Below, in pieces: positions 591 through 51,546 of a stretch of 64,000 bases of DNA. Location of the stretch: assembly GCA_016185945.1 (NCBI GenBank), contig JACPMR010000010.1:109923-173922 (forward strand), in the 5' to 3' direction. This DNA is from Candidatus Woesearchaeota archaeon. GTDB lineage: Archaea; Nanobdellota; Nanobdellia; Woesearchaeales; GW2011-AR4. Positions within the stretch are counted from its first letter, which is position 1; each line of letters begins with the position of its first letter. The notes under the pieces are model-generated. The model was not told the DNA's origin and searched no databases. It saw nothing but the letters and a program-made list of their open reading frames with translations. A program made the position numbers and the translations under genes.

Positions 591-700
591 ATATGGCAAG
601 ATTAGAGAATATTGTTTAAAAAGGTTGCTAAAAATAAGTTAATAGTTAAGAAGAAAATTTCAATCTGCCTTCGGCAAAAACTTGAATCTTAACTTATTGT

Positions 701-873
701 TTCAATCCGTCGTGCTTCGCACGACAATATCTTGGCGCGTCGGCAGTCTGCTGTGGAAGCTCTTGCCTTCGTACTCCTCCTCCGCGCCTATTATATTCAA
801 TAATTTCAGGCGAACTTTCCTGAGCTGGGCTCCCATATCATGCTTGCATATAGTGGGAAGCGACGTTGATTGA
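701..873. repeat. Dispersed structured intergenic element, family A copy 1
   Basis: Bounded by TTCAATC...GATTGA; core CCTGAGCTGGGCTCCCA..TGCTTGC..TGGGAAGCGACGT; colinear with 43344-43513. Confidence 0.8.
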
Positions 874-12511: not shown

Positions 12512-12788
12512 TTCAATCACGATGGCGACCCATGCACACAATCAAGTAAGTGACTTGTGAGCGAGTTCGCTGTTGCTTGCGAGAAAAGCTCGCAAGCTCG
12601 CTTTTCAGGTCGAACGAAGCTCACTCGCATGCCACTGGGTGCCCCGCGTACTAAAGTGGCACTTTATGCAAACAATCAAGTGCGACTGCAGAGGCTGTGG
12701 CTCCCTCATCACAACCCGTGGGATTGCAAATCCCACTTGCACAAGGTGTCAACGGACTTTGCCGTTGCAGGGAAGCCCCGTGATTGAA
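12512..12788. repeat. Family A element, expanded copy with nested hairpins
   Basis: Perfect 10-bp terminal inverted repeat TTCAATCACG/CGTGATTGAA; two inverted half-units; several internal perfect hairpins. Confidence 0.8.
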
Positions 12789-12835
12789 ATAAAAAATTTT
12801 ATCATTGTTTTTTAGGAAGCCAGATTTTTGAAAAT

Positions 12836-12983
12836 TGTCAAAAACCACCAATCAAAGATTGGTGGCATGCTGCTAACGCAATAGTTATTCAGTGGTTTTT
12901 GAGCATGCTCGAAAATATACCATAATTGGTAACCACATTTGACTTACGTCCATCAGTCATAGACTGATGGTATATTTTCGACA
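12836..12983. repeat. Family B double-hairpin element (TGTC-stem-GAGCATGCTC-stem-GACA)
   Basis: TCAAAAACCAC/GTGGTTTTTGA and TCGAAAATATACCAT/ATGGTATATTTTCGA stems joined by the palindrome GAGCATGCTC (12901-12910). Confidence 0.75.
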
Positions 12984-17550: not shown

Positions 17551-20500
17551 ATGAAGAGGGGGCTATTGGCTTTTTTGGTGCTTGTTATTGTTCTAGCTTA
17601 TTCTATGTCTGCCTATTCAAAATCCCATAAGGAGATTGAGGAATTATTCGGCAACGAAGAAGAGATTGAAATTATTGTTGTTCTGTATGATGACTATGGT
17701 GTTTTAAGCAGTTATGGCATAAGCAGTTATAATGACAAAGACAATTTTGAAATGAAAAAGCTAATGATAAACGAGCAGCAGGAAGATGTCTTAAAAGAAT
17801 TAAAGATAAAGAAGAAAGACAATGATTTTTCAATTCAATCAAATCAAGATTATGATTTTGATTTGACGAATACATACACAACAGTTAATGGCTTTGCAGG
17901 CAAACTGAAAAAATCAAGTTATCAAAAATTGAAGAATAATCCGAAGGTTAAATCCATATATAAGTCAAGGAATATAAGTTTATTGCTGAGCGATTCTGCT
18001 GGAATTATAAATGCAACAAGAGTATGGAACTTGATTTATAATGGCACGAATGTGACAGGCAAAGGCGAGTCAGTTTGCGTGATTGATACCGGGGTTGATT
18101 ACACTCATGCTGCGCTTGGCGGTTGTACATCTGCTTCTTTCCTAAGCGGTACATGTTCTAAAGTTATTGGTGGCTACGATTTTGTCAATGACGATAACAA
18201 CTCAATTGATGACAATGGGCATGGCACTCATGTAGCTGGGATTGTTGCTTCAAATGATACAACATACAAGGGCATTGCTCCTGATGCAAATATCATTTCT
18301 GTAAAGATTTTGGATTCTAGTGGAGGTGGAACAAGCGCAGACTTGATAAGCGGAATTGATTGGTGTGTAAATAACGCATCAAAGTTTAACATTAGTGTTA
18401 TTTCAATGAGCTTGGGCACACCAACTTTGTTTACTTCCTACTGCGACAATGACGACACTACATTAACAAGTTCTATAGCAAATGCAATTGCAAAAAACAT
18501 TAGCGTGATTGCGGCAACTGGCAATGCTGACAGCACAACAGGTATTGCAAATCCAGCATGCATAACTAACGTAACATCTGTCGGAGGAACAACAAAAGCA
18601 GATGCAATGGATTTTAACAGAAACAGCATAACTGATTTATTGGCGCCTGGAGTTAGTATTACCTCAACTCAAAAAGGTGGTGGTTTTATTTCACAAAGCG
18701 GCACTTCAATGTCAACTCCCCATGCAGCAGGAGCATTTGCATTATTGAGGCAGTACAGGAGACTAGAGCAGAATGTCACATTGACGCCTGCGCAGATACA
18801 AGATGCTTTGAATGATACCGGAAAGCAAATATCAGATTCTGGCAGCGGCCTAACTTTTTCAAGAATCAATGTTTTTCAAGCTTTGACATCCCTTGATACA
18901 ACCGCCCCAAACATAACAATTGTTGCGCCAACTCCGGAAAACAACTCCAACTTATCAAATCATTCTTTTGTTATCAACCTCACATCCAATGAGGTGCTTT
19001 CCACAGTTGTGCTGGAATTCAATGGCACCAATGAAACAATAAATTCAACTTCTATTCAATTAAATTGGATGGTAAATAAAACAATAAATCTGTCAAAGTT
19101 TGCAACATTTGGAGTATTTACTTACAAGATTTACGGCAATGATTCTGCAGGAAATACAAAAATAACACCGATATTCCAGATAAACATAAACAATACAGCG
19201 CCTAATATAACATCATTTTATCCGTTAGAACTTAATACAAGCATAAATGAGCCCAATAATTTGACATTTAACATATCTGTTGTTGACATAAATGGAGATG
19301 CAATAACAACAAAATGGTATCAAAATGGAACTTTGAAGTCAGCAATAAACAATTTCACATTTGCCAATAATTTTTCAGCTGCAGGATTTTATAATATTAC
19401 AGTCATAGTTTCTGATAATAGTCTTGAAACCTCTGTATCGTGGAATTTGAGTGTTAATAATACGAACAGGGTTGTAAATATTACTAGTTTCTCTCCAAAT
19501 GCAACTTTGGATGTAGCAGAACCCAATAATCAAACTTTTAACATTACATATATTGATTTAGATACTAACGATACGATAAATGTGACTTGGTACCAAAATG
19601 GCACTAATAAGTCAACAACCATAAGTTCACAATTTAGTTCTTCTTTTTCTGTATCTTCAGGTGGCGGAGGTGGTGGTGGAGGGGGCACAGCGGCTAGCTT
19701 AGAAAGGGCTTCCAACTTTACCTTTTCAGGCAACTCAACAGCAGCAGGATTTTACAATATAACCGTGATTGTTTCTGATGGTTATAATTTAACGTCACAA
19801 TCATGGAATTTAACTGTTTACAATCCGCCCCCGAATGTTGCATCAGCAGGTATAACAAATACCGATGATATGAATAGAACGAATGGGACGCTATTCGGAG
19901 AGTTGGTTGCTTCCGATCCAGACGATGACAATTCAACTGCAAGGGAAACATTATGGTACATCAACAATACATTGGCGGCAATTTACACAAACAAGACGCT
20001 TATCCATCCAATCAACACAACAAAACTAGAAAACTGGACATTTAGCGTAAGAGTTTTTGACGGGCAGAACTGGAGTGATTTTATTAACAGCTCGACAATA
20101 AGAATATCTAATGCAAAACCAACAATAAACATAACTACACTTTCAATAACAGTGCTAGAAACTCAACTTGTGAATGTCTCGTTAAATGCTTCTGATTTGG
20201 ATAATGACGCCTTAACTTTTACATCCAACAGAAGCGAGTTTTTACTGTCAAATAATTCACTATTATGGTTTACCAATTTAAACAATAGCGGAATTTATGC
20301 AATAAATGTTACAGCCAATGACAGCGTTGAAATAGACTCAGTAATTGTTAATGTGACAATAATAGATGAAAGAGATTTGGACAACGACGGCAACCCTGAC
20401 TTTAACGAAACAGATGATGATAATGATGGAATAAATGACGTAGATGATTTTCTGATTGGCAATTTATCATCAATAAATACAACCCTCTTACTTAATTTAA

Positions 20501-21507
20501 CAATAAACGGAACATCAAATCTTTCCAAATTATTTAATGGGACTTTCACAATTAACATAACAAATGGAACTCATCCAATTTTGGAATTTAATTTCACATT
20601 AAATGCTTCAAACATTCTTGACTTTGGAAATCTGACAATAAACAGAACAATAAATGGCAGCAGTGCAGTTTCAATAAGAGGATTGCGCTTGGCTAACTCA
20701 ACCAAAACTATTTTCTTGGAAAAAATAAACACAACTGCAAGGGCTGTCTGCATAAAAGATGCTGATGCTGGCTTTGATACAATCAGTTCTGCATGCAATT
20801 CTGCAAATGAAACTCTGCTGAGCTGCGTCAACCAGTCAAGCGGACAATACACTTGCCTGGATTTTGGCACAAGATATCAAATCTCTGGCTTGAACCATTC
20901 TGCTGTAAAAGAGCAGTGCACGGACAATGACGGGGATGGATTCGGCACTGGGTGTTCTGCTGGAAGTGACTGCGATGACAATGACAGAAGCAAAACAACC
21001 AACTGCGGTGGCGATGGTGGGGGTGGCGGAGGCGGGGGAGGTGGCGGAGGCGGGGGTGGCGGAGGTGGTGGAGGTGGAGCTATTTTCGTATGCAACATGG
21101 ACTGGAAATGCGGAGAGTGGATTGCATGCATAAATGGACTGCAAACAAGACAATGCGAATTTGTAAAAGTTCCTCAGCATGCTTCTGATGTGCAATGCCC
21201 AAGCCAGTCAAGCCAGCCTATAACAAGCCAGAAATGCGAAGTGCCAAAACAAATAGCTTTAGCAGCGGAAACCTGCGAGGATGGCATAAAAAATCAGGAC
21301 GAGATTGGCGTTGATTGCGGCGGAGTATGCAAGCAGTGCGTACAGCAGATGGCAACTACTGAAGCTGTCCAGAAAAAAGAGGAAACAAAAATAACCGGAT
21401 TTGCAATCAGAGATTTGGTAACAAAGCCAAATATTATGACAATTTTTGTTGTAGCTCTGATTGCACTTGGTTTTTTTGCTTGGCTTAAATTCTTAAAGCG
21501 CAGATAA
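17551..21507 (+). CDS. Surface-anchored subtilisin-like S8 protease with Ig-like repeats, poly-Gly linker and Cys-rich stalk
   Basis: Signal peptide; IDTG, HGTHVAG, SGTSMSTPH triad; many N-x-S/T sequons; C-terminal TM followed by KRR. Confidence 0.93.
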   Translation: MKRGLLAFLVLVIVLAYSMSAYSKSHKEIEELFGNEEEIEIIVVLYDDYGVLSSYGISSYNDKDNFEMKKLMINEQQEDVLKELKIKKKDNDFSIQSNQDYDFDLTNTYTTVNGFAGKLKKSSYQKLKNNPKVKSIYKSRNISLLLSDSAGIINATRVWNLIYNGTNVTGKGESVCVIDTGVDYTHAALGGCTSASFLSGTCSKVIGGYDFVNDDNNSIDDNGHGTHVAGIVASNDTTYKGIAPDANIISVKILDSSGGGTSADLISGIDWCVNNASKFNISVISMSLGTPTLFTSYCDNDDTTLTSSIANAIAKNISVIAATGNADSTTGIANPACITNVTSVGGTTKADAMDFNRNSITDLLAPGVSITSTQKGGGFISQSGTSMSTPHAAGAFALLRQYRRLEQNVTLTPAQIQDALNDTGKQISDSGSGLTFSRINVFQALTSLDTTAPNITIVAPTPENNSNLSNHSFVINLTSNEVLSTVVLEFNGTNETINSTSIQLNWMVNKTINLSKFATFGVFTYKIYGNDSAGNTKITPIFQININNTAPNITSFYPLELNTSINEPNNLTFNISVVDINGDAITTKWYQNGTLKSAINNFTFANNFSAAGFYNITVIVSDNSLETSVSWNLSVNNTNRVVNITSFSPNATLDVAEPNNQTFNITYIDLDTNDTINVTWYQNGTNKSTTISSQFSSSFSVSSGGGGGGGGGTAASLERASNFTFSGNSTAAGFYNITVIVSDGYNLTSQSWNLTVYNPPPNVASAGITNTDDMNRTNGTLFGELVASDPDDDNSTARETLWYINNTLAAIYTNKTLIHPINTTKLENWTFSVRVFDGQNWSDFINSSTIRISNAKPTINITTLSITVLETQLVNVSLNASDLDNDALTFTSNRSEFLLSNNSLLWFTNLNNSGIYAINVTANDSVEIDSVIVNVTIIDERDLDNDGNPDFNETDDDNDGINDVDDFLIGNLSSINTTLLLNLTINGTSNLSKLFNGTFTINITNGTHPILEFNFTLNASNILDFGNLTINRTINGSSAVSIRGLRLANSTKTIFLEKINTTARAVCIKDADAGFDTISSACNSANETLLSCVNQSSGQYTCLDFGTRYQISGLNHSAVKEQCTDNDGDGFGTGCSAGSDCDDNDRSKTTNCGGDGGGGGGGGGGGGGGGGGGGGGAIFVCNMDWKCGEWIACINGLQTRQCEFVKVPQHASDVQCPSQSSQPITSQKCEVPKQIALAAETCEDGIKNQDEIGVDCGGVCKQCVQQMATTEAVQKKEETKITGFAIRDLVTKPNIMTIFVVALIALGFFAWLKFLKRR

Positions 21508-23833: not shown

Positions 23834-23983
23834 TTCAATCAACTTAGAGCTTCCTTTGAAAGCAAGCGCGAAGAAGGAAACCTGCTGTCAATGTAGCACT
23901 ATAAATCACGACAAACAAGTGCGACCAGAACTGCGGGGCACTCATATCAATATGCAGAAATTGGGTCGCCTGTTGTTTTTAAA
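23834..23983. repeat. Family A element copy
   Basis: Aligns over its full length with the reverse complement of 52215-52364 (TTCAATCAAC, GTAGCACTATAAATC, GCnGGGC stem). Confidence 0.75.
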
Positions 23984-26682: not shown

Positions 26683-29622
26683 ATGAGAAAAATAATTATT
26701 TGGATTTTTGGGGTGTTTTTGCTGGTTATGCCGCTAGTTAATGCCTTCGTAATAAATGAAAGCTTTGTGAATGAGAGTACGCTCAATAATTTTCTCACAA
26801 CAGGTTATGTAGATTTATTTGATGGAAAATTTCATGCTAACTGGATTTATAATTGGACAAACACTGAAGAGGATGGCAGCATAAGCGATTGGGATGATTC
26901 AGCGACTGGGACACTTGTGACAAGCCCGGTGAAGAAGGGAGTATATTCCATCAGAGCAGACTCTGGCATTTATGACAACTTTGTAAGTGCTGCTGCAACC
27001 GATTTATGCGGAGAATGGTGGTATCAAGATAATGGCGGAAATAATGAGATGCATGGATTTAGGGACAGCGGTTCTACAGCCCACAGGATAGGAAGATGCA
27101 GCGTTGGGGCATGCGGAACTTCTGACAGCTTCTGGACTTATCAAGATTCAGCTTCATTGCAAACTTCAAACATACCAATGGATACAGCATCAGGCAAATG
27201 GGCAAAAATAAGAATGTGTGCTGGTGCAGGCGGCGGCTACATTCTTGTCTGGGATAGCACACAAAAAGGAAGACATGTTGCCAACATATCTAACTTGTAT
27301 GCCATAAACAGGTACGATTTGGCAAGTACCGGAGCATGGGGGTTTTATGTGGATGAGCCTAGGGTATTCCGCCCAAGCGCAGGCGCAAGAAACGCAAGCA
27401 CAGGCTCTATGTCATTTGTATCCCTTCCACAGGAATTAGGTTCGCAGGAGACGTCTATAAAAGCAAATTGGAAAACAATTGTTGGCTCTGGAGTGGTGGT
27501 AAAGGTAAGCTTGGATAATGGAACAACCTGGGACACAATATCCGCGAGTGGAGATTCTGTGACTCCTGGCGGAACTTCTGGGCATTTAGTGTACAACATT
27601 TCTGTAACAGACGCAACTACTGAAATTGATTGGGTTTCATTTGAACGCGGAGTTGCTCAGGCTGTTGAACAAAATTGCTGGTCAATGGATAAAACAGACA
27701 TGAAAGATAACGAAATATTGAAGGATTTAAACAATACAAACAATATGACTATAATCAGCTCTCCCTTAAACGAATCGGGGACAGATTGTAAAATAGGGGG
27801 ATGCATACATTTTGACGGCAATTCTGATTATTTAAAAAGTCAGGAAAATGCCGGAATAACAGGTGCAAGTGCAAGAAGCTGGACTGCATGGGTTAAGCAT
27901 GATGCAGCCCCGGCTACAACCCAAGATTTGTTTGTTTACGGAAGCGAAGTTGACTGCGGAGTTAATGGTTTAATAACCTTAAGCAGCAATGTTTTATACC
28001 ATTTCGGATTTGGCCCTTGCGATATTACTTTCACAGGTTATAAAGCACCGGAAGAATGGACATTTTTTGCTGTTGTTTATGATGGTAATACTCTAACTTT
28101 ATTTATCAACGGGACTAATACAAGTTCCGGAGTTGTACCACTTAATTCTGTGAATAATAAAATAAGCGTAGGTCTTAGGCAGATAGGGGGAAGTCCTACA
28201 ACTTATTTTGATGGCAGAATAGATGAATTAAAATTTTGGGACGGGGCTTTAACTTCTGCTCAAATAACATCTGAGTATAATTCTGGAAGCGGTATAAGTT
28301 GTAGTGGAACAACTGCTCCACCCCCAAGCACACCATCATCAAAATTTCCCTACTCCAGCCCGTTAGGCAGAAGTGGAAATGAGACTTTCGACAGCAATGC
28401 TGTTATGTCTGTCAACTGGTCAACAGCTTCAACTTCAAATGGAGTTGCATCTATCACCAATGGCTTGAGTTCAGCAACACACAAATATCATTATCAGGTT
28501 GCAGAAGCGACTGGTGCTACATTGCATTACCCAGTTTCACAATTCTTTAAATTCAGAGTAAGAAATTCAACTGCAAATTGTAACTTAATAGGATGGATGT
28601 CAACCAATGATACAACAGGAGGAGGTATAAGTTGGTATGAAAGCGGAGGAAATTTTATATTGTATGATGATGAACGAGGTAACTTCGATATTATTGATGG
28701 GTTAAAGGCAGACAGCACTTGGCAAGATGTGGCAGTTAAAGCAGGACTCGATGGCAGAATAAATGTTTCTATAAATGGTACAAAAGTCGCTTCAGTTGAA
28801 TGGAGAGCAGATGGAGCGCCAAACGCACCACCATTGTTTTTTGCATTAAGAAGATTTAAAGGTGCAGACACTTCTTGTGGTTATGAGCTTGATAATCTGG
28901 TTTTTGTAAATGGGACTAATTATCCTGCTGACCAACAACTACCTCCACCACCTCTTGACACAACACCGCCAGGAATAACATCATATAACATGACTTCGTC
29001 TGGAGGGTGCACTAATTGGAACATTGACAAGAATAATCCTTGTACAACCAGCAATACTTTGCCAATTGTAAGCTTTGCAACAAATGAAAGCGCTTTCTGC
29101 AGGATAGGGGTTACTAATGTAAATTACACAAGCATGGGGGTTACTAGAAATTGTTTAGGTGGGGAAGGAACAATACAGCACGCATGTACTTTAACCCAGC
29201 AAGACCAGTTGACACAGCAGAGCTCTTTCATTTACTTAAGCTGCAAAAATGCAAATAACAATGAAAACCCAGCAAGCACTTCTGGAGCATTGGCATTGAC
29301 TATAACGGGATTAGTAGCGGATGAGCCACAAGGCGTCGCTGCAATAGAAACAGGCATCAGCAATGCTCTTGTTTCTGGCTACACAGTTCACTCAAATCAG
29401 AAGATATATGTAAGAAGGCTGGATGGAACCCAAAGTTATGGCACATTTGACAGAGTGGCAAAATGGAATGGAAAGATATGGGCATTTAATTATATTACGG
29501 GATTGGATAATCTGATGGGCATGCTGAATATGACGCCTGTGCTGCATGTGCTTGAGCTTGCAAACTTGAGCACAGCAACTATTACATCTAATGTTCAAGC
29601 AACTATAACTTCAACCAAATGA
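26683..29622 (+). CDS. Secreted LamG/concanavalin-like domain protein
   Basis: Signal peptide; FDGNSDYL, WTAWVK, WTFFAVVYDG, FDGRIDELKFWD; Pro linkers. Confidence 0.85.
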   Translation: MRKIIIWIFGVFLLVMPLVNAFVINESFVNESTLNNFLTTGYVDLFDGKFHANWIYNWTNTEEDGSISDWDDSATGTLVTSPVKKGVYSIRADSGIYDNFVSAAATDLCGEWWYQDNGGNNEMHGFRDSGSTAHRIGRCSVGACGTSDSFWTYQDSASLQTSNIPMDTASGKWAKIRMCAGAGGGYILVWDSTQKGRHVANISNLYAINRYDLASTGAWGFYVDEPRVFRPSAGARNASTGSMSFVSLPQELGSQETSIKANWKTIVGSGVVVKVSLDNGTTWDTISASGDSVTPGGTSGHLVYNISVTDATTEIDWVSFERGVAQAVEQNCWSMDKTDMKDNEILKDLNNTNNMTIISSPLNESGTDCKIGGCIHFDGNSDYLKSQENAGITGASARSWTAWVKHDAAPATTQDLFVYGSEVDCGVNGLITLSSNVLYHFGFGPCDITFTGYKAPEEWTFFAVVYDGNTLTLFINGTNTSSGVVPLNSVNNKISVGLRQIGGSPTTYFDGRIDELKFWDGALTSAQITSEYNSGSGISCSGTTAPPPSTPSSKFPYSSPLGRSGNETFDSNAVMSVNWSTASTSNGVASITNGLSSATHKYHYQVAEATGATLHYPVSQFFKFRVRNSTANCNLIGWMSTNDTTGGGISWYESGGNFILYDDERGNFDIIDGLKADSTWQDVAVKAGLDGRINVSINGTKVASVEWRADGAPNAPPLFFALRRFKGADTSCGYELDNLVFVNGTNYPADQQLPPPPLDTTPPGITSYNMTSSGGCTNWNIDKNNPCTTSNTLPIVSFATNESAFCRIGVTNVNYTSMGVTRNCLGGEGTIQHACTLTQQDQLTQQSSFIYLSCKNANNNENPASTSGALALTITGLVADEPQGVAAIETGISNALVSGYTVHSNQKIYVRRLDGTQSYGTFDRVAKWNGKIWAFNYITGLDNLMGMLNMTPVLHVLELANLSTATITSNVQATITSTK

Positions 29623-32600
29623 GGCAACAAGAGTTTATGGCAAAGAAGGGTGTGCTGATGAAAAATCAGAAAAAATGGCAGGCAGCAAGCTTAGTTGCCC
29701 TTTTGATTATTCTAGTTTCTATGATTCCTTTGTCTCTGGCAGCTGAAAACCAGCAGACTAATAGAATAGAGAAACTCTCTAAAGCCCAGCTTAGTAAACT
29801 GGACGAGCAGGTCAAGGAAAGGCTTAATTCTTCCGACGCCACCATAAAAGTCCTGCTAAAGAAAAAGAAAGCAAAAAAGGTTTTTGGAATTTCAGTTCTG
29901 GAGAATGCCAACAGGAAGGCTGTCTTCAATGCCTTATCCGATTCAGAAGGCAAAGTTTACAGGGAAACAAAAAATTATGTTGTTGCAGAAGTTCCTGCTG
30001 ACAAATTAGCTGATTTGGTTTTGAGCAATTCTGTGGAAATGATGTATGCTGAGCAAAATTACAACTTACTTCTTGAGCAAAGCGTTCCTGCTGTCAATGC
30101 TCCTGCTGCATGGAATATTGGATATACAGGAGCCGGAGTTAAAGTTGCCGTGCTGGATACCGGAATAGACTATGGGAATAGCGCTTTTCAAAATCGAGTT
30201 GTTTTGTCCCAGGCATTTACAGGAGAAAATCACACTATTGACCTGCATGGGCATGGCACTCATGTTGCCGGCATCATAGGAGGCAATGGCACATTGAAAG
30301 GAGTTGCTCCTGACGCATTGCTATTAAATGCAAAGGTACTGAATGACTATGGCAGCGGAACTTCATCATCAATAATTGCAGGCATTGAATGGGCTGTGCA
30401 AAACGGGGCAAGAGTGATTTCCATAAGCTTTGGAAAATCTGACAGCTCCCAGGACATTCCATTATTTGAATCGTTGCAATATGCGATTGACAATGGAGCA
30501 GTTGTTGTTGCAGCATCCGGCAATTGCGGAAGCTGTGGAAGCTGCAATGGGTTTTTTGGAGTTACAACTCCCGGAAATTTCGAGCCTGCCATTACAGTGG
30601 GAGCTGTTGACGACTTGAAGCAAATTGCCTGCTTTTCCTCGGGGCAGGATTTTGGAAGCTACGTCAAGCCCGATGTTGTTGCGCCTGGCGTCAATATAAA
30701 CTCATATTATATTAACAGCCAGCTCAAGGCATTAAGCGGCACTTCAATGTCCACTCCCCATGTTTCAGGAGCAGTGGCTTTGCTATTGCAGAAAAATTCC
30801 AGCCTGAACAATTCCGAAGCAAAAAAGCTGCTTGAAAGTTCTGCTGTTGATTTAGGCGCAGGCGGAAAAGACATTTCTTACGGAAGCGGATTCATTGACA
30901 TAAGCAAGCTTGTTTTGGGCAATGCCGCAAACCAGACATTAGTCGTCAACAACACCAATATCACAAATCCCATAATCCAAAACACAACAAATGGGCTTAT
31001 TGTTGATTTCAGAAAAACTATAGATGTAAACGACACCAATCCAATCAGTCTAAGCAGCGAGCAATACCTTGCCAATATTTCCTTAACAATTGCCAAAGAC
31101 GGCATTCCATCAGTGCAGGAATATTCGGAAATGCATTATTTTGAATACAACTTTACCAAAAGCTCCGAGATTGGCAATTACAATATGAAATTCAATCTCT
31201 GCGGAGACAATTGCACTAGTTTGAATTACAGCTTCGATGTTGTTGACAAAAATGATGGCATCCAGATTGTAAGCATCCAGCCAATAAAGGAAAGCGATAT
31301 TGCATTTATAAAAAGCGTGAGCAACACTTTCAGCATTGATGCTGCCAACGAGTCAGGTGCTTTAGAGTACTCAAGCGCGGAAGCAAGCAACACATGCACA
31401 GGTGCAGGTTTGCTTAACCTAAATACATTGTATTATGCTTACATTCAATCTGCCGGCGATGTAGATTGGTTTTACTTCAACGTGCCCGGCGCAGGCACAG
31501 GGGAGTTTACGACAACACTTGATGTCCCCACAAACAGGGATTATGAGCTGGAGCTTTATGACTCGTGCTCAAACATGATATGCTTCTCATATGGAGGGAC
31601 TGGCACGGATGAAAAATGCATAGCCAACATAAGCAGCAAGAGCAAGATGTATGCAAAAGTCTATGGCTACAATAGTCAATACGACGCGTCCAGCGAATAT
31701 TATATCAAGAGCACTTTTCAGGAAAAGACAGGATATGCAAGGCTCTATGTCAACAACTATGAGCCGTCAGGGTATTATTTATACATATACATTGATGGCT
31801 CTCTTTACGGGAGCATTAGTGTAAGCGGGTACATAAATTATTTGGTGAATCCTGACATTGTGCTGTCAAGCGGAAGCCATTCCATAAGGCTGATAGGGAC
31901 AAACAACTACAACAGCAAAACCTATGACAAGACAATTACACAAACCATTAGCGGCGGGGCTGTCACAACCTTCCAATACAATATAGACTTGAGAGACTGC
32001 ACCTCAGGCAGCTGCTGCGATTCATATGGCTACTTCAAGGGCACTAATTGGATTTGCAACAGCATATACCAAACAAGCTATGGCTGCCCTTGGGGAACTG
32101 ACGCAGGAAGCGATGTTGGGATAAGATACCAAAGGATGTATTGCAGCGGCACAAGCTCGTCCTGCAACGGAAACACTGTATGGGGAGACTGGGCTCTTTA
32201 CGCAAGCTGCAGCTCAAGCCAAAGATGCAATTCCGCGACTTTAAGCTGCGAGAATATAGTTGTATGCGGCGATGGAACATGCAGCAGCAATGAAGTATGC
32301 CCAAAAGACTGCCTGAAAGTCACTTCTTTTACTGCGGCAGTGCCTAGTGAAGTAAGTGAAGGGCAGGAAATCAATGTAGAAGTAAACATAAAAAATATCG
32401 GAACCGTAACGCAGTCAGGAAAAGTGGAAGTTGGCATTATACCAACTGACTTTTTTAACAGGAATATTCTCCAAGCGGATACTTCTTGGCCAGTAACAGG
32501 GTGCTGCGAGCAAAATGAATACTATGACACGAGAGAAGTGGAAAGAGATCCCGGAAGTCAGAAGTATACTGTGTTTACACTGAAAGCTCCCACCACATCG

Positions 32601-35600
32601 TCATTTGATAATTGCGATGCAAACTCGCCAAAAAAATCAGCATGGGGCAGCTCTTTTAAAGTCATAGCAGGCGCTTACGACGCATGCGGAGGTAGCTATT
32701 ATTCAAGCATTGAAAAAACCATCAGCATCAAGAACAGATATGATTACATTGACTTGGTTGATTATAGTTTAGTGCCTCCCAACCCCATAGTCTATAAAGG
32801 AAATTCTCTTAAGTTTAGATATCAAATAAGCAACAGCTGGCATTCTTCGGTAAATGTCGGGCTTGGAGCATCACTGAGAGATTCTAATAGCAAGGGGTAT
32901 AATGATGAGCCAAATGATATAGTCATTTCGGTGTTGCCCGGGACTTATTGGTATGAAAGGACATTTACTACAAACAATAATTACATATTTGGTAATTATG
33001 ATGCTGCTTGGGGCGTACATAAAGTTGACGCTAATAATAAGTTTGCTGGTGAAATTGAATTTTCAAATCCTTTGTGGGCAGATGATTTGGTTAAAGTTGT
33101 CGGTTGCGGTGATGGCGCATGCGGCAGCGGAGAAACATCAACGTCATGTCCTCAGGACTGTTATGCAAACATTCAGATAGGCAGGATAGAAGAAATAAGT
33201 CCAGCAAGTGCTGTGGAAAATCAGCAAGTTACCTTCCAAGCTTCTGTATCTAATACCGGGACTGTTCAGGGAGAGAAGTCAATAGAGGGCGCTGTTGTGC
33301 CTGAAAGCTGGGCAGGAATAATTTATCCAGCTACCGAGTATTCAACATCTTATGTTGAGCCAATAACCAAACCATGTCCTGACAATAAATATTATGATGC
33401 TTTCAATATCACCTTAAATCCAAATGAAGGCGAATTTGTGCAATTTACTGTGATTGCGCCAAACAGAACTTCAGTAGATGCCTGCAATCCAAGCAGGAGC
33501 GCATGGGATCCGAATGGGAGATTCAGAGTTATTGCAGGAACATTCCAAAATGCAGGCGACACATATGAAAGCTTTAAGAATGTTTCTTACACAGTAAATC
33601 AATATGTCTGTTTAGTAGATTCTGAATGTCCAGACGGAGCTTTGATAACCCAATATTGCTTGGGCAATGATATCTATGAGGACTATAATGCCGGAAAATG
33701 CTCAGATAATAAATGCTCCTTTCAGCCAAAATCAAGGCTAGTCAAAAGCTGCGCTTATGGGTGCACTTCCGGAACCTGCAATCCCCCTCCTTGCAACTTC
33801 AAAGACGGCTCTTCAATGGACTGCGAATGCGACTCTGATGTGGAGTGCCCTTCGGGACATTATTGCAACCAGGTTTCAGGGCCTGATGCTTGTGAGAAAA
33901 TAATTTATCAAAATCAATGCTCAAATTTCAATGATTATTTCTGCGAAGATGGGGCTGTGAAGAAATGCGTCAATAACGGAAAGTTTTGGGAAAAGCAGAA
34001 AATCGATGGTTGTACTGGCAAATTTCAATATTGTGATCCATCGGTTGTTGATGGAACTGGGAACTGCTCTGAGTATCCTAAGAATTTTGATGTATGGCTT
34101 GATTATGCAGACACTGGAATGGTTGTGAACAAACAGCCAGGGGACAAATTAAAGATTAATGTTTACTCTGAATCTTCATATACATTGAATGTTATTTATG
34201 ATTCAAGCATCTTTGCAGGCAATTGCAGAACAATGTCTGTGCATTCAGGCGAAAATACTTGTAGTTTGACTGTGCTGGACACTGCTGAAGAACAAACAAT
34301 TTTCATTAAGGTTGAGAACAAGCCAAAGCAAGTCAATATAATAAACAAGCCAGAGCTTCTCATAATAACAGATTCTGAAAAACTTACTCAGCAATTCCAG
34401 TTTGAATCGAATGGAGTAAAAGCAGTTTTAAAGCAGGCATATGCAAATGCCCGAGATAAAGGAGTTGTTTATGACTTAAGCTGGTACAAGAACGAATTGG
34501 GAACTTCAAGTCCATTTAGTTCTTTTGTTGCTTACAACGAGAAAATAACAAAGCCATCAATGACAGATAATTCCTATAGCACAGCAGTCTCTACATTCAT
34601 TAAAGACAAATGCACTGATTGCAAAGACGTGATGATTGTTGGGGATGATTATGTGGTGCCGGGGTATAGGGCAGAGACTGTAAATTACGACTCAGACTGG
34701 TATTATTTATGGCTAAATAAACGTATAGAAACTTCACCTATTTACACTGACTCACCTTATATCATCAAGAAAAAAACATTTGGAGAAATAAATTCCCTCT
34801 TTGTTGAAAATGGAAAAAAGAAAAATGTAGCTTTAGTTTATTCGAATAATGCAGATGCAGAAGTTATAAATGAGATAAGTAATTTAAAAAACTTAATCAA
34901 AACAAAATATTCAATTGACAGTGAAATAATTGATTCTTCTGCGGTTGCATGTAATTCCTTCAACAAGCTTAAAGACAAAACTTTGATTATCATAGGAAGA
35001 AAAAACTCAAATAATCTTTTGCCTTGCTATTCTATGTTTGAATCTGACTTTAACAACTCAGTTTCTATAGAAAGAAATTTATGGTCTAATAAAAAAGATT
35101 CCTCTGTCATTATAGATGAAAAGAAAAGAGCCATATTAACATTTGAAGAATTTATTAAAGATAATCAAGAGTTAGTTAAATTCAAGGAAAAATCTAAAGT
35201 TTATGCATATGCAAATGATTTCCTGGATATTTTTAAAAATTTTGAGGTAACATTAGATGATGGAACAAAAATAACTATAGAGCAAGGATTCAGAGGCTAT
35301 ATTATGGGCCAATGCGAATATATTCCTGGCTTAGTAAACAGCCTCAAATGTTCTGCTTTTGACATGACTGTTTCCTCAATTCCCGGCGTTGGGATTGTTA
35401 CTGATGCGAGAGATGCGGCTTTAATCTGTCCAGAATTTGTTGCTGAAGGAGGTACTTTAAATGGCATTGTCTGCGGTGCATCTACAGGAGGCGCAATTAC
35501 TTCTGCGACAACTATTATTTTTGGAGCTACAGTTGTTGGAGGAGTTGCTTCAGAAGGGGCTGATATTGCACTTTCAACTATTAAGGTTGTTGCTAAAACC

Positions 35601-36329
35601 ATTGCAAGGGTGGACAAGAGAATCTTTGAGGTATTTAAGTTTGGGAATAAGATTGATTCGATGAAATCTTTCTTTAAGATAAACGACTGGAAAGAGGTTT
35701 CAAAAATTAAGTCTATTTTGAAGAATATGCTTGAAAATGCAAGACAGATAAGAGTTTTAATTGATACTAAAATTGATGTGATTGGAAAGCACATAAAGAG
35801 TTTTGATAATTTGGTAAAAACTTCTAAGACTTATGATAAAGTATCTAATTTCCTGAAAAACAATTTAAGAAATAGTGATAGCGTTAAAAAAGCATTAGAT
35901 GAAGGAAAAATCAGTCCTGATGACTTAGAATATTTTGATGAGATGCTGGCTAACAAGAATTTGAAAGTTAGTAACTTTGGTAAAGGTGCAACTGAACAAG
36001 GCGGTGTAAAGTACCCTGTTACACTTGAGAATTTTGGAAAACCTCATGATGAGGCATATGTATTTGTTAGAAGTAATTATCCCAATCCTCAGAAATTCAG
36101 CCATCAACTTCAAGTAAAAAATGGGGAGAAAGTTTATAATTTCAGGTTGGATAGTGATCCTAAACCCCATTCAAATATTGAAATCAGAAAAAAAGAAGAG
36201 CTGGATGCAATAGTTAATGAACATTTAGACCTTGATTTAGATATTAAAAATCAAAACGATATGGACGATGCTCTTGAGAATTTCTTTACACTCATTAAAT
36301 CAACTGTTAGTAGGGGTGAACTGCCATGA
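29619..36329 (+). CDS. Giant secreted S8 subtilase with PPC/CARDB/Cys-rich repeats, N-half of a C25-like domain, pre-toxin-like segment and candidate toxin tip
   Basis: LDTG/HGTHVAG/SGTSMSTPH triad; GDVDWF PPC-like; CGDGxC repeats; LLIITD..MIVGDDYVVP..YTDSPY; SIPGVGIVTDARD; basic divergent C-terminus. The subtilase call is firm, the toxin call is inferred. Confidence 0.8.
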   Translation: MRQQEFMAKKGVLMKNQKKWQAASLVALLIILVSMIPLSLAAENQQTNRIEKLSKAQLSKLDEQVKERLNSSDATIKVLLKKKKAKKVFGISVLENANRKAVFNALSDSEGKVYRETKNYVVAEVPADKLADLVLSNSVEMMYAEQNYNLLLEQSVPAVNAPAAWNIGYTGAGVKVAVLDTGIDYGNSAFQNRVVLSQAFTGENHTIDLHGHGTHVAGIIGGNGTLKGVAPDALLLNAKVLNDYGSGTSSSIIAGIEWAVQNGARVISISFGKSDSSQDIPLFESLQYAIDNGAVVVAASGNCGSCGSCNGFFGVTTPGNFEPAITVGAVDDLKQIACFSSGQDFGSYVKPDVVAPGVNINSYYINSQLKALSGTSMSTPHVSGAVALLLQKNSSLNNSEAKKLLESSAVDLGAGGKDISYGSGFIDISKLVLGNAANQTLVVNNTNITNPIIQNTTNGLIVDFRKTIDVNDTNPISLSSEQYLANISLTIAKDGIPSVQEYSEMHYFEYNFTKSSEIGNYNMKFNLCGDNCTSLNYSFDVVDKNDGIQIVSIQPIKESDIAFIKSVSNTFSIDAANESGALEYSSAEASNTCTGAGLLNLNTLYYAYIQSAGDVDWFYFNVPGAGTGEFTTTLDVPTNRDYELELYDSCSNMICFSYGGTGTDEKCIANISSKSKMYAKVYGYNSQYDASSEYYIKSTFQEKTGYARLYVNNYEPSGYYLYIYIDGSLYGSISVSGYINYLVNPDIVLSSGSHSIRLIGTNNYNSKTYDKTITQTISGGAVTTFQYNIDLRDCTSGSCCDSYGYFKGTNWICNSIYQTSYGCPWGTDAGSDVGIRYQRMYCSGTSSSCNGNTVWGDWALYASCSSSQRCNSATLSCENIVVCGDGTCSSNEVCPKDCLKVTSFTAAVPSEVSEGQEINVEVNIKNIGTVTQSGKVEVGIIPTDFFNRNILQADTSWPVTGCCEQNEYYDTREVERDPGSQKYTVFTLKAPTTSSFDNCDANSPKKSAWGSSFKVIAGAYDACGGSYYSSIEKTISIKNRYDYIDLVDYSLVPPNPIVYKGNSLKFRYQISNSWHSSVNVGLGASLRDSNSKGYNDEPNDIVISVLPGTYWYERTFTTNNNYIFGNYDAAWGVHKVDANNKFAGEIEFSNPLWADDLVKVVGCGDGACGSGETSTSCPQDCYANIQIGRIEEISPASAVENQQVTFQASVSNTGTVQGEKSIEGAVVPESWAGIIYPATEYSTSYVEPITKPCPDNKYYDAFNITLNPNEGEFVQFTVIAPNRTSVDACNPSRSAWDPNGRFRVIAGTFQNAGDTYESFKNVSYTVNQYVCLVDSECPDGALITQYCLGNDIYEDYNAGKCSDNKCSFQPKSRLVKSCAYGCTSGTCNPPPCNFKDGSSMDCECDSDVECPSGHYCNQVSGPDACEKIIYQNQCSNFNDYFCEDGAVKKCVNNGKFWEKQKIDGCTGKFQYCDPSVVDGTGNCSEYPKNFDVWLDYADTGMVVNKQPGDKLKINVYSESSYTLNVIYDSSIFAGNCRTMSVHSGENTCSLTVLDTAEEQTIFIKVENKPKQVNIINKPELLIITDSEKLTQQFQFESNGVKAVLKQAYANARDKGVVYDLSWYKNELGTSSPFSSFVAYNEKITKPSMTDNSYSTAVSTFIKDKCTDCKDVMIVGDDYVVPGYRAETVNYDSDWYYLWLNKRIETSPIYTDSPYIIKKKTFGEINSLFVENGKKKNVALVYSNNADAEVINEISNLKNLIKTKYSIDSEIIDSSAVACNSFNKLKDKTLIIIGRKNSNNLLPCYSMFESDFNNSVSIERNLWSNKKDSSVIIDEKKRAILTFEEFIKDNQELVKFKEKSKVYAYANDFLDIFKNFEVTLDDGTKITIEQGFRGYIMGQCEYIPGLVNSLKCSAFDMTVSSIPGVGIVTDARDAALICPEFVAEGGTLNGIVCGASTGGAITSATTIIFGATVVGGVASEGADIALSTIKVVAKTIARVDKRIFEVFKFGNKIDSMKSFFKINDWKEVSKIKSILKNMLENARQIRVLIDTKIDVIGKHIKSFDNLVKTSKTYDKVSNFLKNNLRNSDSVKKALDEGKISPDDLEYFDEMLANKNLKVSNFGKGATEQGGVKYPVTLENFGKPHDEAYVFVRSNYPNPQKFSHQLQVKNGEKVYNFRLDSDPKPHSNIEIRKKEELDAIVNEHLDLDLDIKNQNDMDDALENFFTLIKSTVSRGELP

Positions 36330-42908: not shown

Positions 42909-43313
42909 TCAATTCACAAACACAATCCCATTGCTTTTTGTTACTTTGTTGCTTCCCTTTGCAATATTGCCCGTGACATTCGCAGGCAGAAACTTGACAT
43001 ATTCATTGCCGAGATAATCCACAACAATCTCCTTGTTGTCAATCACGCTTATGGTGTAGTTAATTCCATTGACTGTCTGCGGCATTGAAAATGCTCTTAT
43101 GTAGCCGTCATTGACTGACTTTGCAATCTCAATTTCCCTGTAGGCAAAGTTTGCTATGTCCTCTGCAACCTTCTTGTTGCCTTCCTCTTTTGCCTCGAGA
43201 AATCTTGAGCTTGTGACTGCGAAAAATCCAAGCATAACCATAAGCATAAAGGTTGCCAGAAGAACAAACTCCATGGCTGACTGGGATTTTGGATTTGTTT
43301 TGAGTTGATTCAT
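42909..43313 (-). CDS. Class III signal peptide (pilin-like) protein
   Basis: KSQSAMEF followed by a hydrophobic helix. Confidence 0.85.
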   Translation of the reverse strand: MNQLKTNPKSQSAMEFVLLATFMLMVMLGFFAVTSSRFLEAKEEGNKKVAEDIANFAYREIEIAKSVNDGYIRAFSMPQTVNGINYTISVIDNKEIVVDYLGNEYVKFLPANVTGNIAKGSNKVTKSNGIVFVN

Positions 43314-43343
43314 TCTTAATTGAGGTTATTGTGATTTTAATTT

Positions 43344-43513
43344 TTCAATCTGTCGCTTCGCGACATTGGTTACGCGCCTCGGCATTTTGCTGTTGAAGAT
43401 TGTTTTTCTTTGTGCTCCTCCTCGGCGCAAATTTATTTTGACTGCCAGCGATACGTCCCTGAGCTGGGTTCCCACATTATGCTTGCTAATAGTGGGAAGC
43501 GACGTCGATTGAA
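43344..43513. repeat. Family A element copy
   Basis: TTCAATC...GATTGAA ends; colinear with 701-873 with compensatory stem changes. Confidence 0.8.
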
Positions 43514-43567
43514 TTATTTTTTTAATTGTTTTTTGATTTTTTAATTATCTGGTATTTTCCAAACAAA

Positions 43568-44038
43568 TCAAATAACATCTATGCTGACAGAGTTCTTGCC
43601 TGCCTCTACCTTGACTTTCTTCAGCCCTGAGCTTGAAAGCCCTGGAAGCGAGCATATATTCGCGCTGCAAGTTCCGGCTGTCGTGAGATTTACAGAGGAC
43701 AGGAACACAATCTCTGAAGTGCCGAAGCTTGTTGTCAAATTAAAAACAAGCTCCCTGCCGTCTATGATTATTGCGCTGTAAACACTATCTGGAACATTAA
43801 GCTCAAGTGTTGTCTTGGAGCCCTGCCCTGAATAGAATATTGACTCTGCGGCATCAATTATCCCCCTGCCCAGCTTTGTCAGCTGCGCATCAGCTATCTC
43901 CTGAGTTGATTCTTTTGAATAGCTGTAAAACAGGTAGGTTGTCGGCACTATTATTGCGAAAGTAAGGGCAACCACAAGCAGGTATTCCATTGATGCCTGG
44001 GCCTTTCCATGCCCTTTAGCTTGATGTGATTTTTCCAT
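43568..44038 (-). CDS. Class III signal peptide (pilin-like) protein
   Basis: KAQASMEYLL followed by a hydrophobic helix. Confidence 0.85.
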   Translation of the reverse strand: MEKSHQAKGHGKAQASMEYLLVVALTFAIIVPTTYLFYSYSKESTQEIADAQLTKLGRGIIDAAESIFYSGQGSKTTLELNVPDSVYSAIIIDGRELVFNLTTSFGTSEIVFLSSVNLTTAGTCSANICSLPGLSSSGLKKVKVEAGKNSVSIDVI

Positions 44039-44486
44039 TTATCTTGCCATTTACTATATGCACAGGCTTACTAGGAGTGTTGACGGCATAATAGCTCATT
44101 GAAATTTTTAACTCTGCTCTTGTGCCTGCAATATAGCCGCCGCCGGAGCATGATTCAAATTTTATGTCTTTTTCAGAGGCGTGAGACCAGTCAAATGCAG
44201 CTTGAGGAGCGCAGCTTATTGGAGGGGTAGCATCATTTGTTATCTGAAGCGATGTGACCTTTACATCTTCTCCCAGATTATTGACCAGCTTTATCCTGAC
44301 TTCGGACGGCTTTAAGCCAAAATCCAGGCACTTGAACTGGGACGGGAAAACGCATTTCTGCGGCAAATATTTGCCAAAATCAAAAACTCCAAAGTAGTAG
44401 AGCGCGCCTATTGTAAGAGCGATGGCAAAAAAAGCCCATACATATGTGGTGAGAAACTCTAAGGCAGCTTGCGACTTTTTATGCAT
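44016..44486 (-). CDS. Class III signal peptide (pilin-like) protein
   Basis: KKSQAALEFLTTY; paralog of 44873..45382. Confidence 0.87.
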   Translation of the reverse strand: MHKKSQAALEFLTTYVWAFFAIALTIGALYYFGVFDFGKYLPQKCVFPSQFKCLDFGLKPSEVRIKLVNNLGEDVKVTSLQITNDATPPISCAPQAAFDWSHASEKDIKFESCSGGGYIAGTRAELKISMSYYAVNTPSKPVHIVNGKINGKITSS

Positions 44487-44504
44487 TTTAACCTCTTTTT
44501 AAAA

Positions 44505-44825
44505 GTCAAAAACCACCCATCATAGATGGGTGGCATGAATATGTCAGCATAAACATAGCGTGGTTTTGGACATCACAAAATTCCACTTATTCATGGGTTG
44601 TTTTTGAGCATCGCGAAAATCGTAGATTTTCGGGATCCTGAAAATTCATTGAATTTTCAGGATATCCAAATTCCATGCAATGTCATTGTTACACTTAAAC
44701 CACTTGTCAAAAATTCCATTAATATATAAAAAATACATGGAATTTTTGAGCATGCTCAGAAATCGCAACTATTATAAAATGTATATTGCGATTTCTGACA
44801 TATGAAACATAAGTGGGGTTTTGAT
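44505..44825. repeat. Cluster of family B hairpin elements (nested)
   Basis: GTCAAAAACCACCCATCATAGATGGGTGGCATG matches the 12837 copy with a compensatory pair; complete TGTC..GAGCATGCTC..GACA unit at 44705-44800. Confidence 0.75.
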
Positions 44826-44872
44826 ATTTAAAATCTAAAGAAGACAATATATAAAATTTGCGTTTTCAAGAA

Positions 44873-45382
44873 TTATATAACAGTCGAGAATATTTCGCCG
44901 TTTACTTCCTTAGCGTAATTAGAGCCGCTGGATACTGTATAATAGGCTATTTTAAACAGGACTTTTCCCTTCTCTCCGGAAAGCATACCAGATGCTGCTG
45001 AATTGCAGCCGCTCCATGTTAAGTCCACAATCTCTCCCGTCTTCCAGCCTGTAGGCCATGGCGGAGGAGTGGTGCATGCATATTTAGTTGCTGTTTCGCT
45101 GTCGAGTGTTATTGAACTGACTGTTATAGGCTCTCCTATGTTATTCTTCAGCTTAATTTTGAATGTACCGGTAGTTGCACCTACATAAGCTACCTGGTAG
45201 TCAAGGCATTGGAACTCAGGACCCATTGTGCACCTGTTTGGAAGCACTTTGCTCGGCTTCAAAATGCCAAAATATGCAAGAGTGCCTATCATTATCAAAA
45301 TTATCAGAAATGCCCAGCCGTATGTTGTGAGAAACTCCAATGCCGCCTGAGCCTTAGGGCTTTTAATTTTCATTCTTATCAA
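44873..45382 (-). CDS. Class III signal peptide (pilin-like) protein
   Basis: KAQAALEFLTTYGWA. Confidence 0.88.
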   Translation of the reverse strand: MIRMKIKSPKAQAALEFLTTYGWAFLIILIMIGTLAYFGILKPSKVLPNRCTMGPEFQCLDYQVAYVGATTGTFKIKLKNNIGEPITVSSITLDSETATKYACTTPPPWPTGWKTGEIVDLTWSGCNSAASGMLSGEKGKVLFKIAYYTVSSGSNYAKEVNGEIFSTVI

Positions 45383-45446
45383 CCATCTTTTTTGATTTTA
45401 ATCCAATCTATTGTTTATAAATCTTTCGATTAGTGATTTTATTTAG

Positions 45447-48737: not shown

Positions 48738-48895
48738 TTTTATTTGGAAATTTTTATCGACAAGCGGATTACTTTATTCACTTTTCAAATCCAAATGTCG
48801 CTCTCGTTGATTGAATTATTTTTGTTGTATATTGTTGTTTTTTTGGTTTTATTTTTTATTATGTAATGTTACCTAATTGGTTTAAATTTTTATTT

Positions 48896-49840: not shown

Positions 49841-49857
49841 TTTAGTTACAGGTTCAT

Positions 49858-50346: not shown

Positions 50347-50578
50347 TGTCTGTGAGTAGCAACGTAATTGACTTTTTTGTTTAATATTTAAATATCTTTT
50401 ATTTTAGATTTTTAAATCCGCCTTCGGCAAACTTTAGTGCTCGGCAAAACTTTTCTATCATTAAGTTTTGCCTTGCCTATAAATTTAAAATTTTTGAAAT
50501 TTTTATTTTGTTGATTGATTTTTTATTATTGAATTAATTTTTATCATTAAATTTTGTTTTTATTGCTGTTTCATATTT

Positions 50579-51544: not shown

Positions 51545-51546
51545 TG

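Follow-up and report, generated by a model that had tools for sequence, protein, structure and literature searches.

A family of modular GC-rich hairpin repeats at the gene junctions of a Woesearchaeote and its close relatives

Hairpin repeats of the window and their modules

The window analyzed here is a stretch of 64,000 nucleotides (nt) of DNA from a Candidatus Woesearchaeota archaeon, corresponding to positions 109923-173922 of contig C3 in an assembly of 1,506,178 bp and 24 contigs (37% GC, completeness 90.7%). Its AT-rich spacers contain five GC-rich islands, beginning at positions 701, 12512, 23834, 43344 and 52215, each bounded by TTCAATC...GATTGAA or close variants of these ends. A preliminary description made from the sequence of the window had listed five copies and two end remnants of a dispersed, non-coding hairpin family with inverted ends, and reading the sequences confirmed both the bounded copies in their AT-rich gaps and the presence of repeats, as described, at all seven places. 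Our results are best explained by a lineage-restricted, modular family of GC-rich hairpins that colonizes gene junctions of this Woesearchaeote and its close relatives, and whose nearest counterparts in kind are the repeats of the REP/BIME, BOX or Correia class.

Repeat finding within the window recovered the shared pieces D2, D6, D20, I1, I13 and I21, and BLAST of the five window copies against the genome resulted in dozens of matches for each, located on most of the large contigs. Self-BLAST of the genome identified 210 islands matched at least 5 times, which amount to 31,591 nt, or 2.1% of the genome, and the family is hence far larger and more modular than the five copies and remnants first counted, with about 200 loci in 1.5 Mb. 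Short strings from the repeats are correspondingly enriched over their mononucleotide expectation in the genome, with 40 occurrences of GCCTTCGGC versus 2.1 expected, 14 of CGTTGATTGAA versus 1.1, and 38 of CTCCTCCTC versus 3.7.

Modules were defined by iterated nhmmer profiles seeded from the window copies. These profiles matched the genome 36 times for M2, 60 for M3, 105 for M4, 77 for A3R, 12 for A2d and 64 for the end module M5, while A2b, a palindrome matched on both strands, gave 68 matches. With M5 left out, 296 non-overlapping module matches fall into 197 clusters, among which the recurrent architectures are solo M4 (64), M2+M3 (27), the A3R/M4 inverted pair (20), A2b (19), A3R (14) and the M3/M4 inverted pair (9), inverted pairs of half-units totaling 29. 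Modules measure 55-90 nt and loci 150-280 nt, and the terminal inverted repeats TTCAATC...GATTGAA are 7 nt long, extending to as much as 16 nt in inverted pairs (TTCAATCAACGAGAGC/GCTCTCGTTGATTGAA). The hairpin half-units of about 70 nt and the inverted pairs proposed at the outset are real, but the single consensus given for them lumps at least four modules; likewise, its covarying stems TCCCA/TGGGA, ACCCA/TGGGT and TCCTT/AAGGA are genuine pairs that mark different subfamilies, namely M3, A3R and M4.

Read on the strand used in the preliminary description, M5 consists of TTCAATCCG, a variable-stem hairpin, AATATTTAC, a second hairpin and CTAT. The loop of the first hairpin is TTC, TGC or TAC (GAA, GCA or GTA on the other strand), and the second hairpin is framed by GC(TC)GGC...GCC(TC)GC, with a conserved CTGCCA loop. 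A GAA-triloop hairpin had been noted before as the start of several copies; it is indeed present, but it belongs to this separate end module (M1/M5, 64 copies), whose M1 end comprises a G-N-A-triloop mini-hairpin and CGGATTGAA. Because M2 is a variant of the second hairpin of M5, the elements at 701-873 and 43344-43513 are M1 + M2 + M3, here termed type I, of which the genome holds 27 full copies at roughly 73-85% identity. The A2b palindrome and other small hairpins nest in the hairpin loops of M5, in several copies as well as in one relative.

The features of the window are given below, with bit scores against the covariance models R1 (type I) and R2 (M5).

659-700, plus strand: solo M1-like piece (TTCAATCTGCCTTCGGCAAA...), directly before the first element; repeat family D20
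701-873, plus strand: type I element (M1-M2-M3), followed by a T-run; R1 score 159.5 bits
701-727, plus strand: M1 of the first element, TTCAATCCG and a hairpin with loop TTC on this strand and GAA on the other
735-787, plus strand: M2 of the first element, a GCGCG...CGCGC stem with unpaired CCTCCTC
814-873, plus strand: M3 of the first element, a TCCCA/TGGGA hairpin ending in GTTGATTGA
12512-12788, plus strand: composite bounded by TTCAATCACG...CGTGATTGAA, with palindromic A2b at 12549-12636, A2c at 12640-12709 and A2d at 12732-12777
23834-23983, plus strand: inverted pair of reverse M4 (23846-23901) and A3R (23912-23974); I1; between divergent genes
43314-43343, minus strand: AT-rich 30-nt stretch joining an M1 end to the ATG of gene 42909-43313
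43344-43513, plus strand: type I element, with M1, M2 (43375-43427) and M3 (43456-43511), within a pilus-like minus-strand gene cluster
48760-48815, plus strand: solo M4 half-unit ending in CTCTCGTTGATTGAA; D6; T-rich flank after it; antisense to the flanking genes
50413-50488, plus strand: M5 unit, an M1 end and second hairpin between GCTCGG and CCTTGCC flanks; D20; R2 score 83.1 bits (L012:332-414)
52215-52364, plus strand: inverted pair of reverse M3 (52220-52272) and M4 (52298-52355); I13, I21; flanking genes abut in most relatives

The two places first taken for end remnants are family members, the first being a solo M4 (48760-48815) and the second an M5 unit (50413-50488). The tandem arrangement of M1-like piece and type I element at the start of the window also occurs at 3 other type I copies. 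No tRNA or tmRNA was found in the window.

Two further kinds of repeat were observed. A second, distinct hairpin-repeat family lies at 44500-44835 and 12824-12916 of the window, with pieces such as GTCAAAAACCACC...GGTGG and GTTTTTGAGCATGCTCG and with small AT-rich hairpins; a query piece of this family has many matches in relatives at 77-97% identity, and hairpins similar to its small ones nest in the loops of M5 units elsewhere. Additionally, a covarying hairpin module, M6 (...TCCTTTAGTTGATAT...CTTCTTGCCCTTGCCAATAAGGCAATTTCAAT), is located 25-40 nt beyond M1 ends at 12 places in the genome, including G000:C9:82100-82200 and C3:203996-204100 outside the window. This conserved stretch was considered as the 3' end of a paralogous gene, which was rejected for want of a conserved reading frame, and it was classed as a repeat module.

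Base pairing and the folding strand

A compensatory G-C swap noted early in the M2 module (GCGCnTCGGCA...CTCnGCGC) extends genome-wide, with 17 C-G pairs, 16 G-C pairs and 1 mismatch among the 34 distinct full-length copies. Type I is otherwise conserved in sequence, with covariation at 1 of its 21 predicted pairs. The second hairpin of M5 keeps its pairs while its sequence varies freely, and double-sided changes are found at 7 of 10 pairs among 15 copies. A larger alignment, of 53 M5 copies from 784 kb of the genome and from loci of three other genomes, was made with the covariance model and showed strong covariation: 96.8% of the cells are paired versus 70.5% in shuffles (none of 500 shuffles was as high), and double-sided changes number 149 cells versus 42 in shuffles, a comparison that leans towards structure since the alignment was fitted to the model, but whose margin is large. 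When the partners were slid by 1-3 columns, only 31-51% were paired. Furthermore, the M4 stem occurs in the two versions ACTTT/AAAGT (24 of 44 copies) and TCCTT/AAGGA (20 of 44), and 3 copies have a G-C to A-U change. The base pairs of the hairpins are under selection. A search of the whole window against Rfam gave no match at the gathering thresholds and none at E<=1, in agreement with the initial failure to assign the element to a known family.

The hairpins also differ in stability between the two strands. M5 is more stable on the strand with the G-N-A loop in 30 of 32 copies under RNA parameters and in 31 of 32 under DNA parameters, as is M4 in 85 of 97 (RNA) and 78 of 97 (DNA) copies, and in inverted pairs the preferences of both half-units coincide on one physical strand. 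The internal loop of M5 on its preferred strand is a tandem G.A (GC-GA-GGC...GCC-GA-GC), and several M1 hairpins, which read GCGAGC-GAA-GCGAGC, likewise have one. Minority states at the supported M5 pairs include 13 G.U versus 1 A.C (p=0.002), in addition to 16 G.A or A.G. Taken together, strand-specific pairing and stem sequences that are not themselves conserved indicate that selection acts on a single-stranded state and make a protein-binding site in the duplex unlikely. This state could be RNA or transiently unpaired DNA, with both of which the data are compatible.

Gene junctions, element ends and orientation

Comparison with relatives shows that the elements are gained, lost and swapped. 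At the 43344 junction the flanking genes abut in relative G024 (TAG-GC-ATG), versus a spacer of 254 nt in this genome, in which the element lies between an AT-rich flank of 30 nt and a T-rich flank of 55 nt; the AT-rich flank is absent from G024, and in G025 another open reading frame (ORF) is present. A metagenome contig with much closer flanks, at 86% column identity over 1,087 columns, the unalignable junction included, carries M1-M5-M4 with nested hairpins in place of M1-M2-M3, its M1 end being directed at the same gene from 33 nt, versus 30 nt here. This was the one metagenome contig returned and, its junction being filled by another family member, a base-level empty site was not found. 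At the 52215 junction, the gap between gene matches is at most 32 nt in 13 of 24 syntenic relatives versus 293 nt here, with six of the remaining relatives at 53-217 nt and five at 396 nt or more. One relative, G010, has A2b, M5 (with a nested A2b) and M4 at this junction, and the native TATA (CTATAAATA) beyond its M1 end is common to the empty site of G013. These comparisons, which answer the earlier call for empty and filled sites, indicate that the elements are insertions into tight, conserved junctions, with quick turnover and exchange of modules. Where the empty state lacks any spacer, the AT-rich flanks either came with the insertion or arose later.

The distribution of the family was examined with the two covariance models. 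R1, used with stricter filters and scored on at most 44 candidates per genome, a limit that also caps the count of this genome at 44, matched 22 of 36 further species of the genus, with counts of 1 to 27, and none of 24 genomes from 24 other families of the order. R2, used with strict filters and scored on at most 29 candidates per genome, matched 3 of 150 further genomes from the order, with 22 matches in G186, which belongs to a sister genus in the same family, and one each in the two others. In G186 the M5 units lie back to back as inverted dimers, seven of which were inspected, and the M1 ends point outward on both sides. The best-supported conclusion is that the family is restricted to one Woesearchaeal family.

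The ends of the elements differ in their relation to neighboring genes. Genes were called as greedy longest ORFs of at least 70 aa (1,551 genes, 89% of the genome), and the elements are located in the spacers between them. In 458 repeat-free upstream regions aligned at the ATG, an A-run occupies -37..-33 and GAAA peaks in the bin -40..-36, while positions -31..-29 are rich in T and -27..-23 rich in A, placing TATA at -31..-23; by this signature most genes look leaderless. An outward ATG that opens an ORF of at least 60 codons within 200 nt is found at 43 of 60 M1 ends, and at a distance of 25-39 nt it is found at 19 of 60 M1 ends versus 2 of 192 M3, M4 or A3R ends (p=1.7e-11), with a mode of 30-34 nt. 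In copies with a near ATG, ...GATTGAA is followed by four mixed A/T positions and then by four at 79-86% A, and M1 end and flank read GAA-(A)TTT-AAAA with the ATG about 30-34 nt beyond. Spacing and A-rich positions together put the terminal GAA at the place of the A-run of the transcription factor B recognition element (BRE), with the TATA box immediately after it. The stretch at 43314-43343, read on the minus strand as GATTGA-AAAATTAAAATCA...ATG, resembles a BRE/TATA promoter in this register. In a second species, G013, the distance from M1 end to ATG is 20-40 nt in 5 of 11 cases and 20-67 nt in 9 of 11, and one of these M1 ends precedes the same gene (start MARYK) as an M5 unit in this genome, with other modules behind it.

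At the opposite ends, T5 occurs within 20 nt past 110 of 192 M3, M4 and A3R ends and A5 past 5 of 192. Repeat-free spacers after stop codons have T5 in 119 of 380 cases and A5 in 131 of 380, which shows no general T-richness, and the comparison therefore yields no rule for terminators. Neither the link of the M1 end to BRE and TATA nor the T-runs at the other ends formed part of the preliminary description. Additionally, where the flanking genes are co-directional, solo M4 is antisense to them in a ratio of 33:5, and all M4 in a ratio of 53:10. Where the local genes oppose the majority of 30 neighboring genes, a crude proxy for the replication strand, orientation follows the local genes by 16:5 for M4 and by only 10:6 for M5. 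That M4 orientation tracks local genes and not the regional majority suggests that the bias stems from transcription and not from replication.

Among the neighboring genes, the minus-strand cluster at 42909-52813 is pilus- or archaellum-like and encodes a T2SSE ATPase (47283-48737), two T2SSF proteins (45447-47290) and several small proteins without a Pfam family; four repeat loci interrupt it, and the corresponding genes abut in most relatives. Glycine-rich tandem repeats of the GGTGGNGGN type lie at 19660-21081 and 33102-33134, inside the very large ORFs 17551-21507 and 29619-36329, which share stretches at 74-85% identity (D15, D16). A direct repeat of 78 nt with 90% identity occupies 55718-55795, at the 5' end of gene 53762-55813, and 57118-57195, just after gene 55917-57101.

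Function, spread and kinship of the repeats

We hold with moderate confidence that these loci are a REP/BIME-like mosaic repeat acting as an intergenic promoter and terminator cassette. Each locus is built of interchangeable hairpin modules bounded by TTCAATC...GATTGAA and would serve as portable intergenic punctuation. Its M1 end (G-N-A triloop, tandem G.A and CGGATTGAA) would be joined in register to a TATA box, with the terminal GAA replacing the BRE, so that the next, leaderless gene would be transcribed from the TATA flanking M1, while the T-run after an M3, M4 or A3R end would stop transcription leaving the element, including divergent transcription from the same TATA. Since selection maintains the hairpins on a defined strand, they would act single-stranded, either in read-through RNA from a neighboring gene or in transiently unpaired DNA. 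The orientation bias of M4 may have arisen because a hairpin with a T-run lying along an operon would be polar and lost by selection.

Several observations weigh against this cassette or limit its scope. Use of the M1 flank as a promoter and termination at the T-run are inferred from sequence; a search for RNA sequencing runs containing window positions 43001-53000 listed none. The copies of a repeat family are mutually related, so that sequence counts are not independent events, and the gene calls are crude, which makes start codons and some of the context classes approximate. For 31 of 60 M1 ends there is no ATG-initiated ORF at 20-60 nt; in the inverted M5 dimers of G186, the distance from end to ATG is 47-170 nt or no ATG is present; and the M1 end at the G010 junction has a conserved native TATA about 55 nt beyond it. 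TATA-like strings occur everywhere in the AT-rich flanks, and a promoter weight matrix derived from this genome, with 0.96 bit in total, failed to separate M1 ends from other ends. Whole type I elements are unbiased in orientation (5 ++, 6 --, 6 -+ and 4 +-). With respect to the folding strand, the stability of M3, A3R and M2 slightly favors the other, unit strand, which in type I is the strand opposite to that of M1, and the G.U excess of 42:1 in M4 and 54:4 in type I comes from one and three conserved columns, respectively, that were chosen by RNAalifold on the strand in question and are thus weak evidence for it. A bolder version, in which M1 would be a new kind of archaeal promoter element on a self-spreading cassette, with the mini-hairpin forming on the non-template strand 9 nt upstream of TATA, its tail serving as BRE, the T-run stopping the divergent transcript and a non-Y1 enzyme spreading the unit, we regard as rather improbable.

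An alternative to the cassette, unlikely in our judgment, is that a Y1 (HUH) transposase of the IS200/RAYT kind copies the loci as single-stranded DNA, which would make them REPIN- or PATE-like elements; the enzyme would then recognize the G-N-A mini-hairpins and the tandem G.A pairs in single-stranded DNA, and the link to promoters would be a by-product of the insertion sites that are tolerated. G-N-A-type loops form unusually stable DNA mini-hairpins, and consistent with such copying the GAA, GCA and GTA triloops and the tandem G.A pairs all lie on one strand, half-units form 29 inverted pairs in the genome, M5 forms inverted dimers in G186, and modules have been inserted into hairpin loops. 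Y1 genes moreover occur in 23 of 42 further species of the genus, and among them is a mobile IS200-like element. Against it, a search of this genome, 90.7% complete, with Y1_Tnp (PF01797) gave no match, and in the relatives nhmmer found no family module near four Y1 loci, nor was there an R2 match at E<0.5 within about 1.5 kb of 14 Y1 loci with filters off. Among 36 relatives, 10 have both type I and Y1, 12 type I only, 11 Y1 only and 3 neither, so that the two do not go together, and the tendency of orientation to follow local genes and not the regional majority also speaks against this route.

The IS200-like element itself is about 930 nt long and encodes a 206-aa Y1 transposase (L088:1116-2049 in G012, L091 in G033 and L092 in G013). 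It is 88-89% identical across these three genomes, whose genes are only about 70% identical, and in G013 its ends are located at several contig ends; these sequence comparisons suggest recent transfer and activity within the genus. The ends and hairpins of the IS200-like element differ from those of the repeat family, no module matches lie near it, and the shared ends or subterminal hairpins expected of an IS200/IS605-derived PATE were not found.

Other enzymes gave a similar result. No transposase domain occurs in the 19 ORFs adjoining the window copies, the TnpB zinc-ribbon family gives sub-threshold matches only in this genome, and no transposase with the ends of the family was found in the genome-wide search, which covered Y1_Tnp, TnpB zinc-ribbon and tyrosine recombinases (DDE families were not searched). 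The family has terminal inverted repeats like those of MITEs (miniature inverted-repeat transposable elements), but 21 type I copies revealed no target-site duplication at offsets of -4 to +4 and with k=2-6, where the largest excess was 7 observed versus 4.1 expected, although old copies in low-complexity flanks could have lost one. Of the affiliations first proposed, the REP/REPIN-like one thus stands as far as REP/BIME is the closest known kind, whereas the RAYT or Y1 partner that it implied was found neither here nor linked to the family in relatives, including a search for a Y1/HUH gene flanked by the same ends, and the MITE label finds no support in the duplications or transposases that were sought.

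Also rather improbable, in our view, is that the units are small structured RNA genes and not a promoter and terminator cassette. The type I RNA would then be about 150 nt long and comprise M2 and M3, starting just past the M1 hairpin and ending at the T-run, and the single-stranded CCUCCUC of M2 would mimic an anti-Shine-Dalgarno sequence; such an RNA would function either in trans or as an antisense transcript arising upstream of a promoter. The slightly better folding of M2 and M3 on the unit strand, the unpaired CCTCCTC in the consensus fold, the covarying stems and the T-run after nearly every M3 end are what such genes would predict, and the TATA beside M1 would, by its spacing, set an inward start just past the M1 hairpin. 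On the inward side of that TATA, however, no purine-rich BRE-like stretch is apparent by eye, uncounted. Copy numbers that range from 0 to more than 27 among species of one genus, the absence of the type from 24 other families, the replacement of one module by another at the same junction and the occurrence of both orientations relative to genes are likewise at odds with RNA genes, as are the lack of an Rfam match and the restriction of type I covariation to one of 21 predicted pairs.

Finally, attC-like or other tyrosine-recombinase sites, imperfect hairpins with AAC...GTT near their ends that are recombined as single strands, would account for the ends TCAATC-AAC-G...C-GTT-GATTGA, for strand-specific folding and for the three full-length Xer-like tyrosine recombinases of the genome (G000:C3:301356-302165, C8:467-1264 and C11:41752-42498), and integrons have reportedly been seen in archaeal metagenome genomes, but we consider this highly improbable because the best match to the integron integrase model TIGR02249 scores 120 bits versus a cut-off of 265 and skips model positions 178-236, recombinase counts vary from 0 to 4 across the genus (two to four being common) whatever the repeat load, and the repeats are scattered over the genome, between conserved genes of housekeeping and pilus functions, with neither IntI nor cassette arrays found.

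Returning to the mosaic repeat, the closest known systems are bacterial. REP, BIME and REPIN sequences of Enterobacteria and Pseudomonas share with this family hundreds of short GC-rich extragenic hairpins arranged as mosaics and inverted pairs, compensatory stem changes, an intergenic location and long persistence in a lineage. The present family differs from them in having no sequence relationship, an archaeal host, longer units and one end joined to a BRE/TATA promoter, and, unlike REPIN-RAYT systems, no RAYT or Y1 gene is found in the genome or linked to modules in relatives. The Correia elements of Neisseria (CREE/NEMIS) are similar in size (about 100-170 bp), inverted ends, intergenic location and high copy number; they have 26-bp inverted ends and a TA duplication, and some of them provide outward promoters and form hairpins in co-transcripts. 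The present family has inverted ends of 7 nt, reaching as much as 16 nt in inverted pairs, no duplication was found, and the promoter type is archaeal BRE/TATA and not bacterial -35/-10. BOX elements of Streptococcus pneumoniae are modular (boxA-boxB-boxC), as the loci are here, and MIRUs of mycobacteria insert at tight gene junctions inside operons, as these elements do; unlike both, to which it has no homology, this family consists of other hairpin modules, belongs to another domain of life and shows nesting in loops. The M1 end and flank are in the same register as the canonical BRE/TATA of repeat-free promoters of leaderless genes, but the place of the BRE is filled by a conserved repeat end directly after a GC-rich mini-hairpin. 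REP/BIME/REPIN, BOX, Correia and MIRU repeats are functional look-alikes and not relatives by sequence.

Much work exists on small dispersed hairpin repeats of bacteria; almost nothing was found on archaeal ones. A full-text literature search found no description of such a hairpin family in Woesearchaeota or other DPANN archaea. In PMC3733652 the word "archaea" occurs in the reference list only, and one preprint gives REPINs as unknown in archaea. A MITE census places "a Woesearchaea genome" among the highest archaeal MITE densities, at 105 per Mb (PMC11602168); it does not describe the present family, which, or one similar to it, may be included in the count.

The repeats have practical effects on these genomes, where they give rise to spurious ORF calls, interrupt assembly and break synteny. 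Two percent of a streamlined 1.5 Mb genome is devoted to repeats that split conserved operon junctions. In the bolder version described above, an archaeon with a tiny genome could rewire its operons by inserting units that say "stop antisense, start here". If the promoter and terminator cassette proposed here is correct, the repeats would shape how DPANN archaea partition their genomes into transcription units, and would be natural examples of compact promoter and terminator parts.

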